From: a virus
Lineage: Duplodnaviria; Heunggongvirae; Uroviricota; Caudoviricetes; Schitoviridae
IMG/VR virus record: IMGVR_UViG_2595698760_000001
Coordinates: 64,001-74,669 of that record
Strand: one strand, 5' to 3'
DNA length: 10,669 nt
The notes under the pieces were generated by a model. That model worked only from the letters and a program-made list of their open reading frames with translations. It was not told the DNA's origin and did no database searches. The translations under genes were made by a program, and so were the position numbers. The stretch's first letter is position 1. Each line of letters starts with the position of its first letter. Positions 6,043 to 10,669 of this stretch are shown here, one piece after another.

Positions 6043-6115
6043 TAATGACTCTCTTTTCGTGGTTGTTTGGCTAAATGCTATTATGGCAGGAAGCCTTGTT
6101 ATACAATAGCTCCGC

Positions 6116-6143
6116 ATCATACTGACTAAAGCCTAAGTGTTAA
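6116..6143 (-). promoter_or_regulatory. Sigma70-like promoter for the leftward late operon
   Basis: On the minus strand: TTAACA (6143-6138), 16-nt spacer, TATGAT (6121-6116), each a 5/6 match to consensus, about 70 nt upstream of the gp69-like start. N4 late genes are known to use host sigma70 RNAP. Confidence 0.5.
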
Positions 6144-6168
6144 ACGCATTCTCTGAGTGCTTTTAGAA

Positions 6169-6283
6169 CTAACGCCGCGGTAGAGCCGATGTCGATAGTA
6201 GCCATAGATAGCTTTTCTTATTCAAGCCACGGGCAGTGCCCCGTACAGCAGACGAGCCTGATAAGCTCCGGCGCCAGAGTTAG
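6169..6283 (+). ncRNA. Putative structured leader or small RNA (multi-branch)
   Basis: CGCCG 6173-77 pairs with CGGCG 6269-73, and CTAA 6169-72 with TTAG 6280-83. These enclose hairpins CGG-TAGAG-CCG (6178-88), ACGGG..CCCGT (6229-44) and GAGC-CTGATAA-GCTC. No ORF here. Confidence 0.35.
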
Positions 6284-6324
6284 CCAGCCCTCTGTTCACA
6301 GATGCTGGCGGATTTTCTTTCTTT
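6283..6324 (+). terminator. Intrinsic terminator-like hairpin upstream of the 202-aa gene
   Basis: GCCAGC(6283-88)/GCTGGC(6304-09) with inner TCTG-TTCA-CAGA, followed after GGA by TTTTCTTTCTTT. Confidence 0.55.
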
Positions 6325-6372
6325 GGTTTTCCCCTTTTAAAAAATAATTAACTGCAACGTTAAGGATTAGTC

Positions 6373-6981
6373 ATGTCTGAAGTTAAAAATTTCGTAACCG
6401 TTACTGAACGTTCTACCAAAGCAATGCTGTCTGCCTCTGCCACCCTGGCTAAAACCATCGGTGAGCTGACCACTCTGGCCAACACCTCTGAGCAAATCGC
6501 TCAGGAAATTGGTTTCCGTCAGAATGAGCTGTCTCAGGTTGAAGGCGACTACGACCAGAAGCTGGCTGAAGCCAAAGCTGACCTGCGCATCAAAGTGCTG
6601 AACAACGAAGACCAGGTGCTGGGCAATCTGCTGAAAGCACGCGGTCTGGTGACCATCGAACCAGGCGAACTGGATACCCTGCGTGACAACCTGACTGCTG
6701 CCGAACACGGCCAGGAAGATGCAATCGCTGCAGCCGTTCAGCAAGCAATGGCTCAGGCCAACCGTGAAATGCAGGCCCGCCTGTCTCAGCAGGAATCTCA
6801 GCACAAGGTTGCCATCGCTGAGCTGACTGCAAACAGCCGCGCTAAAGACGACCGCGTAACCATGCTGACCGAACAGCTTGATGCTGCTCGTGCTGACCTG
6901 AAGGCAGAGCGCGAAACTCGTCTGGCAATCGCCCAGGCTGAATCTCAGCGTCAGGGTGTTGTGGTCAACGCCGGTAAGTAA
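6373..6981 (+). CDS. Conserved phage coiled-coil protein (202 aa), function unknown
   Basis: AAGGA SD, double TAA stop, and strongly biased enterobacterial high-expression codons (CTG, GCT, CGT, AAA, GAA). Ala/Glu/Gln-rich helical sequence ending RQGVVVNAGK, which I recall as a hypothetical family in N4-like phages. Confidence 0.9.
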   Translation: MSEVKNFVTVTERSTKAMLSASATLAKTIGELTTLANTSEQIAQEIGFRQNELSQVEGDYDQKLAEAKADLRIKVLNNEDQVLGNLLKARGLVTIEPGELDTLRDNLTAAEHGQEDAIAAAVQQAMAQANREMQARLSQQESQHKVAIAELTANSRAKDDRVTMLTEQLDAARADLKAERETRLAIAQAESQRQGVVVNAGK

Positions 6982-7003
6982 TAAGCTGGTGACCCTCAGC
7001 ACA

Positions 7004-7413
7004 GAGTTCCCCTTCGGGGGAACTCGATGGTGAGAATCGCTACCTTACCGTTGCAGTGAGGCTTGTCGGCCAAGCCTGACCTATAGAGGAGCGGAACCAC
7101 TACCGCTCGAAACCGACCTCCGGCTTTCACCCGGATGAAATTGTGGGCCTGAGCGTCCGAAGGGAATGTGGCTATCAACCACCTTGAAAGGTTCCCTTAG
7201 GCGCAAGCCTGCGCTGGCATCGTACTGCCCAGATAGGATTTCGGTTCTATCTGTCGGTATCTTCACCAGTTTACCCGGGCTGGTTTCAAACGAAGGTATC
7301 GACAGATGGAACTGGGTGCATACAGCGGAGCGGCCTTGTGAGAGCAGGGCGTCTGGTGACTCACACATCGGGCGTCATGTTAGGCAGAAGCCCAATGGAA
7401 GCTCACGACCATC
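7004..7413 (+). ncRNA. Candidate large structured non-coding RNA (family not recognised)
   Basis: 9-bp C(TTCG)G hairpin 7004-25; long-range GATGGT 7026-31/ACCATC 7408-13; stems 7059-65/7071-77, 7089-94/7103-08, 7125-29/7136-40 and 7160-66/7192-98; GCAA tetraloop hairpin 7199-7210; 21-bp helix 7244-64/7292-7312 whose only three non-Watson-Crick pairs are G.U. No credible CDS. Confidence 0.65.
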
Positions 7414-7417
7414 AATC

Positions 7418-7480
7418 CTCCCTGCGGGACGAAGTGCGGATAATCCTTCGGGAACCCATACTGAAACGTTCCGCAGGGAG
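7418..7480 (+). promoter_or_regulatory. Structured element sequestering the RBS of the first array gene
   Basis: 14-bp stem CTCCCTGCGGGACG (7418-31)/CGTTCCGCAGGGAG (7467-80) with one G.U, and an inner TCC-TTCG-GGA hairpin (7444-53). Its 3' strand contains the GGGAG SD located 6 nt before ATG 7487. Confidence 0.6.
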
Positions 7481-7486
7481 ACCACC

Positions 7487-7654
7487 ATGACCATCCTCGA
7501 TATTCTATTCCTCACCGTTCCCTGCAAGTACAACCGCCAGTACCTCCTCCAGTATTACCTTAATTCAACCGATGAACCCCAGTGCCGTATCTCTTTTGCA
7601 TGGAGCCTCCATGAACCTGCTATCCCTTTTAGTTACCCAAGTCACAACGTTTGA
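7487..7654 (+). CDS. Small array protein 1 (55 aa, MTILDILFLTVP...)
   Basis: GGGAG SD and the shared N-terminal motif. It is the 3' part of track ORF 7166..7654. Confidence 0.7.
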   Translation: MTILDILFLTVPCKYNRQYLLQYYLNSTDEPQCRISFAWSLHEPAIPFSYPSHNV

Positions 7655-7796
7655 CCGAGGACGTATAGGCCCGACCACACTCGTTGCCCTGGGCAAACGA
7701 CTGGAGCGGCCGCTGTCTTTCCCGGATACTTACCTGACTCACCGGCTCATCGAAGCCATGCTGGAGAATTACAATGGCAACACTTACGTTGACTGA
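7611..7796 (+). CDS. Small array protein 2 (61 aa, MNLLSLLVTQV...)
   Basis: GGAG SD at 7602-05 and the motif. Overlaps ORF 1. Confidence 0.7.
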   Translation: MNLLSLLVTQVTTFDRGRIGPTTLVALGKRLERPLSFPDTYLTHRLIEAMLENYNGNTYVD

Positions 7797-7950
7797 ACTC
7801 CTGTACCGGAACCTGTTGCCGCCTGGCGCCGCAACCTATGTTCGACTGCAGCTCATCTATGAAGGGGATACCGGCAAGCTGGGCCTCATGACAGCCCAAC
7901 GTATGAGACTGCTTCAGCTCATCACCGGGGGTGACAATGCAGCTAATTGA
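7774..7950 (+). CDS. Small array protein 3 (58 aa, MATLTLTELLYRNLL...)
   Basis: GGAG SD at 7763-66; the motif is offset by 3 residues. Not in the ORF track. Confidence 0.7.
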   Translation: MATLTLTELLYRNLLPPGAATYVRLQLIYEGDTGKLGLMTAQRMRLLQLITGGDNAAN

Positions 7951-8170
7951 ACTCCTGGCTCAACGTCAGCTACTCGACGGAGACACCTTCGGCAAGACAT
8001 TGTTCGGAGTAGCCTATCGGGAAATGTATCACCAGGATGAACACCTGGGGGTAAAGCTGTACTCCCTACGATTCTTTCTGAGGAACCTTCATGCCCCTTA
8101 TCGTACTGCTGATGTGCGAAGTGCCGTACCGGCAGACTGGCTTAACCACAAGTCTGTTTTCAATCGTTGA
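7937..8170 (+). CDS. Small array protein 4 (77 aa, MQLIELLAQRQ...)
   Basis: G-rich SD at about 7927-31 and the motif. The track starts it at GTG 7931. Confidence 0.7.
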   Translation: MQLIELLAQRQLLDGDTFGKTLFGVAYREMYHQDEHLGVKLYSLRFFLRNLHAPYRTADVRSAVPADWLNHKSVFNR

Positions 8171-8261
8171 CCTGACACTGTTCAATGCGAACGTGCGGGC
8201 CGACACCTTTGAACTCCTGGAGATATTCCATGCTCATTACTCAACTGCTGAGCCAAGCTGA
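8091..8261 (+). CDS. Small array protein 5 (56 aa, MPLIVLLMCEVPY...)
   Basis: GAGGA SD at 8080-84 and the motif. It fills the apparent gap between ORFs 4 and 6, overlapping them by 80 and 32 nt. Not in the ORF track. Confidence 0.6.
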   Translation: MPLIVLLMCEVPYRQTGLTTSLFSIVDLTLFNANVRADTFELLEIFHAHYSTAEPS

Positions 8262-8469
8262 AGCGCAGTATGGTTCACTGTTCTTCCTCGTGGCCCGTCG
8301 GTACGGAGCCATCCCGAACACACACAAGACGGCCGGCTTCCTCAATACTCTGGCACCAAGCCCGGCGTATTACATTGCCGCCACCCGGGACGCTGACCGA
8401 CAGAACAACATGCGCAACAGCAGCGCCGATGCAATGGCCTATGCCGTACAGGGGAGACTGCGCCGATGA
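8230..8469 (+). CDS. Small array protein 6 (79 aa, MLITQLLSQAEAQY...)
   Basis: GGAG SD at 8219-22 and the motif. Confidence 0.7.
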   Translation: MLITQLLSQAEAQYGSLFFLVARRYGAIPNTHKTAGFLNTLAPSPAYYIAATRDADRQNNMRNSSADAMAYAVQGRLRR

Positions 8470-8642
8470 TGCTTATTCAACTGCTGATGGTTCGCCGGTA
8501 CACCCTGAAGACTGAAAGCATCACCTCTTATCTGACACTGATTGCCCTGGCGCAGACCAGAGAGTTTGACCAGGTAGGCAGAATGTTTAGTAAACGCTTT
8601 GCGGTAGAAGAACTGGTGAGGGTGCTCAATGACAATCACTGA
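8466..8642 (+). CDS. Small array protein 7 (58 aa, MMLIQLLMVRRY...)
   Basis: ATGA overlap with the ORF 6 stop, GGGGAG SD and the motif. Not in the ORF track. Confidence 0.7.
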   Translation: MMLIQLLMVRRYTLKTESITSYLTLIALAQTREFDQVGRMFSKRFAVEELVRVLNDNH

Positions 8643-8829
8643 GTTGCTGAACCAACGAATGCCGCAGCCGGAATACTGGGAGAACTTTATCTACTTACTG
8701 GAAGATGAGTTCTGCTGCATTAAGTCAGTACCCAAAGTCCAACACTTACTGGGCAGACTAACTGGCGAACACCAGAGACCGTCTGCCAAGTTCATTCGTA
8801 ACCAGTTCAAAAGGAACTTCATGGGATGA
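8629..8829 (+). CDS. Small array protein 8 (66 aa, MTITELLNQRMP...)
   Basis: GAGGG SD at 8618-22 and the motif. Confidence 0.75.
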   Translation: MTITELLNQRMPQPEYWENFIYLLEDEFCCIKSVPKVQHLLGRLTGEHQRPSAKFIRNQFKRNFMG

Positions 8830-8981
8830 GTCTTGCTGAACTTCTGTTGGTTCGTCGGTACGACGTGGGTGACCGGTTCATCGCTATAGGCAATCACATT
8901 GCCGGAGAACCGTATGACTGGTTCGATTTATCCTGCACACTACGGAGTATGCTCTATGGCCCTAAGCACCATCCTTCTTAA
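8826..8981 (+). CDS. Small array protein 9 (51 aa, MSLAELLLVRRY...)
   Basis: ATGA overlap with the ORF 8 stop and the motif. Not in the ORF track. Confidence 0.7.
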   Translation: MSLAELLLVRRYDVGDRFIAIGNHIAGEPYDWFDLSCTLRSMLYGPKHHPS

Positions 8982-9105
8982 TATCCTGCGCACCGGTGAC
9001 GCATTCGGCCTGCTGCCGGGAACCATGGCCACTCAGATGGGGCCACGACAACTGTGCAGGAAGTTTATCCGCCACACGCTGCAGGGGTTACCCCATGACG
9101 ATTAG
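8956..9105 (+). CDS. Small array protein 10 (49 aa, MALSTILLNILRTG...)
   Basis: GGAG SD at 8944-47 and the motif. Confidence 0.7.
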   Translation: MALSTILLNILRTGDAFGLLPGTMATQMGPRQLCRKFIRHTLQGLPHDD

Positions 9106-9268
9106 TGACCTTCTCGCCTGGCACCAACTAGCGGGGAGCGACGGGGTACACCGTAACCTGATGGAAGTCTGTTATCACTCCCTGCACCTGGAGTGGAATC
9201 AGATTGACCGGGTGATGCCCCTGCTGGTGGCCTTCTCTGAACGTGCTGATAAGGAGTGGTATTTATGA
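9095..9268 (+). CDS. Small array protein 11 (57 aa, MTISDLLAWHQL...)
   Basis: AGGGG SD at 9083-87 and the motif. Confidence 0.7.
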   Translation: MTISDLLAWHQLAGSDGVHRNLMEVCYHSLHLEWNQIDRVMPLLVAFSERADKEWYL

Positions 9269-9393
9269 CAATCACCCAACTGCTCTGGTGTCTCGTGCCT
9301 GGCAGTGCTGCATCCATTGCTTCTTACTGCTCATATGGGGTACGGGGCAAGGGGCTGACCGGCGGCAACCTGTTGAGGAACATGAACCAATGA
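9265..9393 (+). CDS. Small array protein 12 (42 aa, MTITQLLWCLVPG...)
   Basis: ATGA overlap, AAGGAG SD at 9251-56 and the motif. Not in the ORF track. Confidence 0.7.
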   Translation: MTITQLLWCLVPGSAASIASYCSYGVRGKGLTGGNLLRNMNQ

Positions 9394-9554
9394 AGCTGAC
9401 TGAACTCATCCTGCTGCGGGTAGAGGGCGGGGAGATGTCTGACATGACCCTGGCCGCTTACTCCTGGATAAACATGTGCCGTGAACAACGGGAGATACGC
9501 ACCACCTCAATCGTTAAGATAAAAGCCCTATGCAGAACATTGAACCAACAATAA
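9390..9554 (+). CDS. Small array protein 13 (54 aa, MKLTELILLRVEGG...)
   Basis: ATGA overlap, GAGGA SD and the motif. Confidence 0.7.
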   Translation: MKLTELILLRVEGGEMSDMTLAAYSWINMCREQREIRTTSIVKIKALCRTLNQQ

Positions 9555-9727
9555 GCATCATCGTCCACATCGCCACGCAGCACGGCAAGCATACCGATAT
9601 GTATCAGTACCTGTCCGATAAGTACGAGCACGCCGGTAATCGTTTAAAGCTGCGGGCCTTTATCCGCCGTATGACGGGATTCTCCTATGACGCTCTGCGA
9701 GCTACTGAACCAAGAACTCCCACTTGA
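9530..9727 (+). CDS. Small array protein 14 (65 aa, MQNIEPTISIIVHI...)
   Basis: Fills the array and overlaps both neighbours. The motif is degenerate and offset (TISIIV), and there is no clear SD, so the start is uncertain. Confidence 0.55.
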   Translation: MQNIEPTISIIVHIATQHGKHTDMYQYLSDKYEHAGNRLKLRAFIRRMTGFSYDALRATEPRTPT

Positions 9728-9866
9728 GACAAAGCGTCAGTCCACACTGACTGGCATCTTCTATTGGTCACACCAGGAGTTACGCCGGCGTACCTGGCAA
9801 GAAGTCCGAGGGGCTAAGGCCATCCTGGAGCATATAACCAATATGCCCTATTACCGGCCTTCTTAG
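9687..9866 (+). CDS. Small array protein 15 (59 aa, MTLCELLNQELP...)
   Basis: GGGA SD at 9676-79 and the motif; the N-terminus is close to ORF 8 (ELLNQ). Not in the ORF track. Confidence 0.7.
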   Translation: MTLCELLNQELPLETKRQSTLTGIFYWSHQELRRRTWQEVRGAKAILEHITNMPYYRPS

Positions 9867-9943
9867 ACCAAACCGTTCTATTGAAAGATTGAACCAACAG
9901 GAATCAGGGAATGTCTAACACACCGTGCCTTCCAAAATCCCCA

Positions 9944-10075
9944 ATGAGTATTTCATCTCTACTTACTGTAAGAATGACTGGGTATACCTTAATAGGTTTA
10001 GTAGACAGTGATGTCTTAGACTTAAAGATGAGCTACAAGATATATAACCTAGTCCGTATACTGAGTAAGCTATGA
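9944..10075 (+). CDS. Small array protein 16 (43 aa, MSISSLLTVR...; in-frame upstream ATG at 9911 gives 54 aa)
   Basis: The motif begins at ATG 9944, but the better SD precedes ATG 9911, so the start is ambiguous. AT-rich codons. Confidence 0.55.
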   Translation: MSISSLLTVRMTGYTLIGLVDSDVLDLKMSYKIYNLVRILSKL

Positions 10076-10230
10076 CTCTATTCAAACTCTTATCTGGAGT
10101 ATATGTTGAATACTATAGAGACCCAGAGTTCTTAATTAACTTAGCTGTATTAGGAAGTGAAACTCTATTCAATAAGAACTTCACTAACCCTACTTATGAC
10201 TTCCTCATAGCCATAGAAAAGATTGGTTAG
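10072..10230 (+). CDS. Small array protein 17 (52 aa, MTLFKLLSGVY...)
   Basis: ATGA overlap with the ORF 16 stop and the motif. AT-rich codons. Confidence 0.6.
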   Translation: MTLFKLLSGVYVEYYRDPEFLINLAVLGSETLFNKNFTNPTYDFLIAIEKIG

Positions 10231-10301
10231 AACATATAGCAAAATTCGCTAGTTATGTTCCACTGTACTATAGGGGCGCTACACTCTCAAAGTGGAGACT
10301 A

Positions 10302-10310
10302 CCCCCCCCC
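10302..10310. other. C9 homopolymer at the end of the AT-rich stretch; probable vicinity of the genome terminus/terminal-repeat boundary
   Basis: The run is seen directly. The terminus interpretation is inferred from N4-like gene order (terminase side, right-end genes, then the first early gene). Confidence 0.35.
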
Positions 10311-10372
10311 ATGTTCTACACGCCTAACGGCTATTGTGGCACTCATGCCCACTTAACCTTAGGAGTATTATC

Positions 10373-10669
10373 ATGGCTCGTCGTACAACAGTTGGCTCAG
10401 TAACTGGCGCACTCATTGACTCAATGGAAGTAGTCAGCAATGTAGCTGGCACTCTCTCTGATTCAGTAGCACATGTGCGTACAGCAGTAGAAGGCTTAGG
10501 CTATAAGGCTCATGTATTCCGTGAGTCAGCAAAGCTGGATGCACAAATCGAACTAGGCAAGATGAAGTCTGACAAGACTCTCGCTGCCAAAGTTGACTTA
10601 GCTAAGCAGAAAGCTGAAGTACAACGCTTAATGCAAACAGACAAAGAACTTGCTGCTGTCTGGAATGAA
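10373..10669 (+). CDS. Early protein, probably the first gene of the left end (N4 gp1-like); 3' end beyond window
   Basis: Strong AGGAG SD at 10361-65 and 99 open codons, MARRTTVGSVTGALIDSMEVVSNVAGTLSDSVA...ELAAVWNE. Absent from the track because there is no stop in the window. The family call rests on recalled similarity and position. Confidence 0.75.
   Translation, partial: MARRTTVGSVTGALIDSMEVVSNVAGTLSDSVAHVRTAVEGLGYKAHVFRESAKLDAQIELGKMKSDKTLAAKVDLAKQKAEVQRLMQTDKELAAVWNE

Follow-up and report, generated by a model that had tools for sequence, protein, structure and literature searches.

Seventeen small, mostly overlapping genes at the right end of the Erwinia phage vB_EamP-S6 genome share an N-terminal signature and probably belong to one fast-diverging protein family

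The locus analyzed here is a tandem array of 17 small genes (positions 7,487 to 10,230) within a 10,669-nucleotide (nt) stretch of Schitoviridae DNA (IMG/VR record IMGVR_UViG_2595698760_000001), hereafter called the window, which covers the right end (bases 64001–74669) of the 74,669-bp genome of vB_EamP-S6 (S6), an N4-like phage of Erwinia. Several known phage regions offer points of comparison. In Pseudomonas phage LUZ7 (Schitoviridae), 29 plus-strand genes (gp87-gp115) encoding products of 40–75 amino acids (aa) stand back to back, with overlapping stops and starts, from an N4 gp69-like gene to the right end of the genome, and make up a clear tandem paralogue family. This right-end ORFan cluster is covered by middle-phase transcripts and its function is unknown (PMC9163698). 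We found that gp87-gp115 (L012:8699-14346) visibly form one paralogue family, of which no description was found in the literature examined. In coliphage N4, the corresponding plus-strand genes, flanked by the gp69 homologue on one side and the right terminal repeat on the other, are gp70-gp72. In T4-type hyperplastic regions, small accessory genes are gained, lost and swapped singly at short conserved gene-boundary sequences; these boundary elements are non-coding promoter and stem-loop DNA and mediate modular shuffling. In turn, the capsid-targeting sequence (CTS) of T-even phages acts together with a scaffolding core and is cleaved off by the prohead protease. The T-even internal proteins which carry a CTS are diverse and small, have only about 10 N-terminal residues in common, form a variable family and play a role in countering host defence (PMC3012670).

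The S6 array resembles each of these regions in part. As in LUZ7 and N4, it is made of plus-strand genes at the right genome end, yet the N4 counterpart comprises three genes only (42–121 aa) and lacks the N-terminal motif described below. In LUZ7, the conserved element is internal (h-h-L-x-x-K-Y-x-K-E, plus a C-terminal W...V) and not N-terminal, and paralogues such as gp102 and gp104 are similar by eye, whereas the S6 copies are unrecognisable pairwise; the two families show no profile similarity (hhalign probability of 0.1%, one aligned column). In contrast to the T4-type boundary elements, the crossover sequence of S6 encodes a conserved N-terminal peptide, with synonymous sites varying. 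With the CTS proteins the array shares a short common N-terminal peptide on otherwise diverse proteins; however, the motif of S6 has the form of a helix capping box, S6 members are present in the early left arm as well, and the resemblance to the T-even CTS logic is superficial. We consider that the 17 open reading frames (ORFs) probably represent one lineage-specific, fast-diverging family of proteins of about 45–80 residues, mostly helical (probability of roughly 0.6).

The nearest records to S6 are the N4-like phages of Erwinia amylovora Fifi011 (around 80% nt identity over the array) and Pastis, the latter classified to Schitoviridae, genus Waedenswilvirus, which bears out the family affiliation given to the window. 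All 17 plus-strand ORFs of the original prediction are present, with products of 42–79 aa. They are listed below with their N-terminal sequences, orthologues (identical residues over aligned length) and, where given, the ratio of non-synonymous to synonymous substitution rates (dN/dS, omega); SD denotes a Shine-Dalgarno sequence.

7487–7654, plus strand: member 1, 55 aa, MTILDIL; SD GGGAG upstream; weak Pastis orthologue at L002:1135 (22/55).
7611–7796, plus strand: member 2, 61 aa, MNLLSLL; Pastis orthologue at L002:1289 (23/61, omega 0.32); 44-nt overlap with member 1.
7774–7950, plus strand: member 3, 58 aa, MAT-LTLTELL (motif shifted by 3 residues); orthologues in Fifi011 (34/57, omega 0.25) and Pastis, both with the 3-residue extension.
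7937–8170, plus strand: member 4, 77 aa, MQLIELL; orthologues in Fifi011 (43/76, omega 0.29) and Pastis (32/58).
8091–8261, plus strand: member 5, 56 aa, MPLIVLL; 80-nt overlap with member 4; orthologues in both sister phages (32/56 and 31/56, omega 0.37–0.39).
8230–8469, plus strand: member 6, 79 aa, MLITQLL; Pastis orthologue (32/77); gone from Fifi011, with the deletion junction within the start/motif codons.
8466–8642, plus strand: member 7, 58 aa, MMLIQLL; Fifi011 orthologue (45/58, omega 0.23) and Pastis orthologue with a GTG start.
8629–8829, plus strand: member 8, 66 aa, MTITELL; orthologues in Fifi011 (48/66) and Pastis (37/66).
8826–8981, plus strand: member 9, 51 aa, MSLAELL; Fifi011 orthologue (45/51, omega 0.03); 5′ flank matches the flank of a gene lost by S6.
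8956–9105, plus strand: member 10, 49 aa, MALSTIL; orthologues in Fifi011 (31/49) and Pastis (26/49).
9095–9268, plus strand: member 11, 57 aa, MTISDLL; apparently a recently exchanged cassette, 52/57 aa and 87% nt identical to Pastis.
9265–9393, plus strand: member 12, 42 aa, MTITQLL...PG; Fifi011 orthologue (36/42, omega 0.14).
9390–9554, plus strand: member 13, 54 aa, MKLTELI; Fifi011 orthologue (39/54, omega 0.45).
9530–9727, plus strand: member 14, 65 aa, MQNIE-PTISIIV (motif shifted by 5 residues); Fifi011 orthologue (49/65, omega 0.21), extension kept.
9687–9866, plus strand: member 15, 59 aa, MTLCELL (S6 Gp114); orthologues in Fifi011 (52/59) and Pastis (29/59).
9944–10075 (alternative start 9911), plus strand: member 16, 43 aa, MSISSLL; Fifi011 orthologue (23/43, omega 0.35); no SD; follows the sole gap in the array.
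10072–10230, plus strand: member 17, 52 aa, MTLFKLL; Fifi011 orthologue (29/52, omega 0.52); ATGA overlap with member 16.

Orthologues of all 17 ORFs occur in at least one of the two sister phages (dN/dS values of 0.03–0.62), and even member 5, which overlaps both of its neighbors, is conserved in all three phages. When interior codons were pooled from the eight gapless S6-Fifi011 pairs, omega amounted to 0.23 in the proposed frame versus 1.37 and 1.78 in the other two. Judged by this pattern of substitutions, the 17 ORFs are real, coding genes. All but member 16 overlap the preceding gene, by 4–80 nt, and the array contains one real gap (9867–9943), as had been described. The accompanying claim that most of the genes possess an SD and/or an ATGA overlap largely held: an SD-like purine run precedes 13–14 of the 17, while the overlap takes the ATGA form in five. 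The proteins are mildly basic (median isoelectric point of 8.8), by which a role as acidic DNA mimics was ruled out.

We found the signature M-x-[IL]-x-x-[IL]-[IL] at the exact start of 15 of the 17 ORFs, as first reported; in the remaining two it is displaced by 3 or 5 residues (the latter in member 14, which starts with MQNIEPTISIIV), and these displacements are retained by the Fifi011 or Pastis orthologues. A six-frame scan of the whole 74.7-kb S6 genome returned 31 matches, among them the 15 array starts, one match internal to an array ORF (7903) and five starts of small plus-strand ORFs in the left arm; on the minus strand of the window no match was found. A comparison with small phage ORFs at large had been suggested as a check, and the motif proved to be far commoner in the array: the background rate is 1 in 521 first-ATG ORFs of 40–100 aa (taken from the remainder of S6 and from N4, Zuri, phiEaP8, Frozen and the right end of LUZ7), and the binomial probability of at least 15 in 17, with the isoleucine plus leucine content of the array proteins taken into account, is about 1e-33. 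The codons of the motif vary freely, again as originally noted. Third positions carry 0.05–0.2 bits versus 0.75–2 bits at positions 1 and 2 of the Leu/Ile codons, and thus the constraint acts on the peptide. The C found at position -2 before the start codon in 13 of the 17 array genes (0.86 bits) was observed in addition.

Positions of the signature that lie outside the search pattern are constrained as well. Counting one representative for each of the 37 or so orthogroups of the family (see below), residue 2 is S, T, N, D or G in 24/37 (background of 0.28, p = 4e-6), residue 5 is E, Q or D in 28/37 (background of 0.13, p = 1e-17), and residue 4 is small or beta-branched in 28/37. P-[GEDN] occurs at residues 10–14 in 10 of the 37 orthogroups, compared with 1.5 expected. 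The sequence S/T-x-x-E is known as the helix N-terminal capping box, in which S/T is the N-cap and Glu occupies position N3. M-T-[LI]-x-[EQ]-L-L thus reads as the start of a helix, with Thr/Ser as the putative N-cap and Glu/Gln at N3 as in a capping box, possibly complemented by a hydrophobic staple. In keeping with this, the aliphatic residues 3, 6 and 7, and more weakly 11, would line one face of the helix, and in the AlphaFold2 (AF2) models described below helices begin at residue 3. On the other hand, the capping box is a general structural motif rather than a protein family, it is recognized here from sequence and models, and removal of the initiator Met before Thr/Ser would lose the staple residue.

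The family extends beyond the array. In S6, around seven further members lie in the left arm (genome coordinates 1573, 2051, 2422, 2737 with a TTG start, 2862, 4100 and 4855). In Fifi011 and Pastis, 16–20 small ORFs each carry the signature, including some genes absent from S6, and clustering over the three phages, by which the genus is sampled in the collections searched, yields about 37 orthogroups. As members with GTG (Pastis L002:2376-2576, VTLIELLLVRRY...) and TTG starts (S6 left arm L003:2737-2880, MSISELLLQRVPGQG...) exist, ATG-only scans undercount the family. No motif enrichment was detected in the early regions of N4, Zuri, phiEaP8 and Frozen or at the right ends of N4 and LUZ7, and the motif is absent from a distant IMG/VR contig reached via its RNA polymerase II subunit. 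Database searches gave a consistent picture: there was no match in PHROGs for any of the 17 members and none in Pfam at E<=0.1 for 23 members, member 8, used as the query against 5.8 billion clusters in a word-indexed search, retrieved only itself, and the credible matches of an exhaustive profile search of 1.84 billion representatives were two of S6's own proteins only. Two repetitive long proteins retrieved by the latter search were judged false, their scores being sums over many stretches. With Foldseek against viral models (BFVD), the sole match of one array protein (member 15) was S6 Gp114 itself, which, together with Fifi011 and Pastis being the nearest records, points to S6 as the source of the window. 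As far as sequence comparison reaches, the family is confined to S6-like (Waedenswilvirus) phages among the genomes and databases searched.

The gene content of S6, Fifi011 and Pastis differs by whole genes, and the junctions fall within the motif. In Fifi011, the gene corresponding to S6 8230–8469 is gone, while it is retained in Pastis. The 45 nt upstream of this junction match the flank of S6 8230 at 25/45 positions versus 10/45 for the flank of 8466, over the 45 nt downstream, 33 positions versus 18 agree with the body of gene 8466, and the switch point is placed inside ATG...CAACTGCTG. In turn, S6 lacks one gene that Fifi011 and Pastis both have; S6 gene 8826 agrees with the flank of the missing gene over its own 5′ flank and first three codons (40/45), and with the next gene of Fifi011 over the remainder (37/45). 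The third case is a replacement. S6 9095–9268 and Pastis L002:4118-4291 share 87% nt and 52/57 aa identity, whereas their neighbors are around 50% identical or unrelated, and the high identity stops just past the Leu-Leu codons of the next gene, so that this looks like a recent single-gene exchange between lineages. Hence, in 3/3 examined gene-unit deletions or replacements the junction is located in start or motif codons, a preference that rests on n = 3 and in which selection for in-frame products biases the junctions that can be observed.

Whether the bodies of these proteins are related is the point at which the original prediction left two alternatives, a rapidly diversifying paralogue family and a common tag on unrelated cargos; on balance, the results favor the former. 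The layout is that of a tandem family, with 17 contiguous same-strand genes of similar product length (42–79 aa). When the first 8 or 13 residues were removed, held-out orthogroups still outscored shuffled or reversed copies against profile hidden Markov models of the bodies (p = 0.003 and 2e-5; Wilcoxon test, five-fold cross-validation by orthogroup, mean z of 1.2), and 60/142 high-scoring body alignments were in register (within 6 residues) versus 24/108 in the null. Sub-groups are discernible, some pairs having 12–31 N-terminal residues in common or being alignable over the full length, and a P-G helix stop at residues 12–13 points the same way. A second, loose helix motif, [LIVMF][LIVMFCT][RKEQG]x[LIVM], is present in the bodies of 18/37 orthogroups (9.7 expected), mostly at residues 36–50. 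The AF2 models, built on alignments of S6 paralogues only, are all-helical for both proteins modelled, and in both helix 1 starts at residue 3: member 7 has helices 3–13, 19–34 and 41–56 (predicted local distance difference test, pLDDT, of 62), and member 15 has helices 3–10 and 20–51 (pLDDT of 76). It should be added that the N-terminus is a fixed anchor, while all that follows is displaced by variable loops; the contrast between a conserved head and seemingly unrelated bodies arises partly from this. For member 8, the ESM Atlas model has a pLDDT of 0.55 and its nearest structures are of the helix-turn-helix type (template modelling score of about 0.55–0.6), a lead that was not adopted.

Several results weigh against a single family expressed as one unit. 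An all-versus-all hhalign comparison of the bodies (residue 9 onwards) did not differ from the reversed-sequence null (mean of 8.6 versus 8.2), and tblastx found no paralogue pair within any one genome. The motif at residues 36–50 was defined post hoc from the alignment, which makes its p-value optimistic, and the AF2 models are of low to moderate confidence (predicted template modelling score below 0.4), with differing helix counts. As to expression, we identified no promoter upstream of the array, and no TAAC hairpin of the candidate promoter type ahead of it (window 6981–7487). Taken with the tests described above, a single diverged family nonetheless appears more likely than a set of unrelated cargos.

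The latter alternative supposes that the first 7–13 residues are a portable address which docks unrelated small cargos to one partner or compartment; among the conceivable partners are a host hub protein and a phage polymerase or protease, or else the address might lead into the virion interior, which would permit co-injection. The noise-level similarity between body profiles next to an N-terminus that is near-uniform over about 37 orthogroups is what a tag would produce, the motif persists when displaced from the start by 3 or 5 residues, and a precedent is documented in the T-even internal proteins, which counter host defence, are diverse and have only a short N-terminal targeting sequence in common (PMC3012670). 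Yet the bodies do contain a weak common positional signal, and the uniform sizes, the recurrent P-G stops and the second helix motif speak against unrelated cargos. The left-arm members, moreover, sit between candidate hairpin promoters, which speaks against a purely late, packaged class. Residues 3–5 read as a prohead-protease-like [LI]-x-E, but the Glu at residue 5 varies (24 E, 18 Q and 6 D in 69 sequences), giving way to Gln or Asp in 24/69; no search for a protease was made. We regard a tag on unrelated proteins as unlikely. An extended form of this idea, in which the N-terminal helix is an address label docking two dozen or more S6-like effectors on one partner while its codons double as the crossover site, we hold to be rather doubtful too. 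If it were true, the label would be the Schitoviridae counterpart of the T4 capsid-targeting system, with its codons shuffling cargos between phages; docking might be to a host hub protein, or to a component of the virion or of the ejection apparatus that allows co-injection alongside the giant RNA polymerase.

Two further explanations place the cause of conservation in the nucleic acid or in translation. Codons 2–7 might be kept since the nascent peptide or the mRNA of the start region sets the efficiency of initiation or re-initiation. The near-continuous overlap of the array genes makes coupled initiation plausible and the C at -2 hints at a constraint on start context, but the freedom of synonymous positions renders an RNA-sequence or RNA-structure signal unlikely, the motif is kept 3 or 5 codons downstream of the start in two genes, the Leu-Leu codons are mostly CTG or CTC and not A/U-rich, and the overlapped small genes of N4, Zuri, Frozen, phiEaP8 and LUZ7 do without the motif; altogether, this makes an expression signal very improbable. 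Alternatively, the 5′ codons might be kept mainly as micro-homology for cassette shuffling, comparable to the T4-type boundary sequences, as the position of all three junctions could suggest. However, DNA identity between the motif copies is low at synonymous sites, which indicates selection on the peptide, and only in-frame junctions survive selection, which biases what is observed. Since synonymous sites vary, we treat the crossovers as a by-product of peptide conservation and not as its cause, and the chance that recombination came first seems to us very slim indeed.

Under the preferred reading of one diverged family, the signature would constitute the start of the first alpha-helix, with M1, T/S/N2 as the N-cap, L/I3, a small or beta-branched residue 4, E/Q/D5 at N3, L/I6 and L7, followed in about a third of the orthogroups by a Pro-Gly type stop at residues 10–14. 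This helix is under purifying selection as a peptide, most likely as a core element of the fold and possibly also as a common contact surface, while the remainder of each protein would have diverged past pairwise recognition. The tight packing and the overlaps of 4–80 nt suggest that the genes form one polycistronic unit and are translated in a coupled manner; in its favor, the region 6100–10669, which takes in the 500 nt upstream of the array, contains no plus-strand sigma-70-like promoter and no excess of terminator-like sites. Adjacent genes have similar 5′ codons, which would act as direct repeats spaced one gene apart and serve as crossover points, so that recombination may delete or swap exactly one gene in frame and lead to a rapid turnover of the array between related phages. 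By analogy with the LUZ7 right-end ORFan cluster, the array is expected to be expressed polycistronically in the middle phase, with coupled translation. The position and behavior of the genes predict accessory products acting on the host, in takeover or counter-defence; accessory genes for host interaction are typically small, diverge fast and come and go between close relatives, from which we infer a host-acting role.

As for the genetic context, the array is preceded by minus-strand late genes and then by a plus-strand gene for a 202-aa protein, and it ends 42 nt before the right terminal repeat. The two remaining features of the window relevant to the array are as follows.

7004–7413, plus strand: conserved structured non-coding stretch of 410 nt; minimum free energy of -177 kcal/mol, z of -5.45 versus 100 shuffles.
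10273–10669, plus strand: right copy of the direct terminal repeat, 397 bp, exactly identical to genome positions 1–397.

Because the exact 397-bp direct repeat is found at both genome ends, the right end at which the array lies is a physical end of the virion DNA. Within the repeat are the 5′ part of an N4 gp1-like gene of 122 aa, which is truncated in the right copy, and a TAAC hairpin. Stem-TAAC-stem hairpins were found only at genome positions 50 (50–59, equivalent to window 10322–10331), 502, 1075 and 5397; their stems are of 3 bp in the terminal repeat and of 5 bp in the left arm, where the left-arm members of the family lie between them. A putative structured RNA of the kind said to precede the array is indeed present upstream, as the 7004–7413 stretch, which exceeds the array genes in conservation across Fifi011 and Pastis and for which Rfam gave no credible match. 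Its first element, which directly follows the stop codon of the 202-aa gene, is a GC-rich stem of 9 bp with a TTCG loop and no T-run. TTCG-loop hairpins were considered as a class of middle promoters and rejected, as the others, with stems of 7–8 bp, precede T-runs and resemble terminators. The 202-aa protein (window 6373–6981) corresponds to phrog_9325 of unknown function and shows 55–60% identity to proteins of large myoviruses (PVP-SE1, 4MG, GAP31 and Klebsiella phages), while among the matches listed for it Fifi011 and Pastis are present but otherwise no N4-like phage, which suggests transfer between unrelated phage groups.

The array genes already have database entries, as hypothetical proteins; the new elements are the family signature, its spread over the genus, its reading as a capping box and the mapping of the junctions. 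We rate the array as a probable member of the phage tandem multigene families. Small, fast-evolving accessory genes account for most of the host-takeover and counter-defence functions of phages and form the least annotated part of their genomes. The signature unites about 24 hypothetical genes of S6 and around 37 orthogroups in three fire-blight phages, which are grouped by no database, and gives a handle for their joint study, with one bait peptide and one scaffold to solve. The turnover of the array is visible at nucleotide resolution, as one-gene deletions and swaps with junctions in the conserved first codons. As S6-like phages are candidates for the biocontrol of Erwinia amylovora, the differences in their accessory genes may be useful for laboratory-strain studies of host range and resistance.

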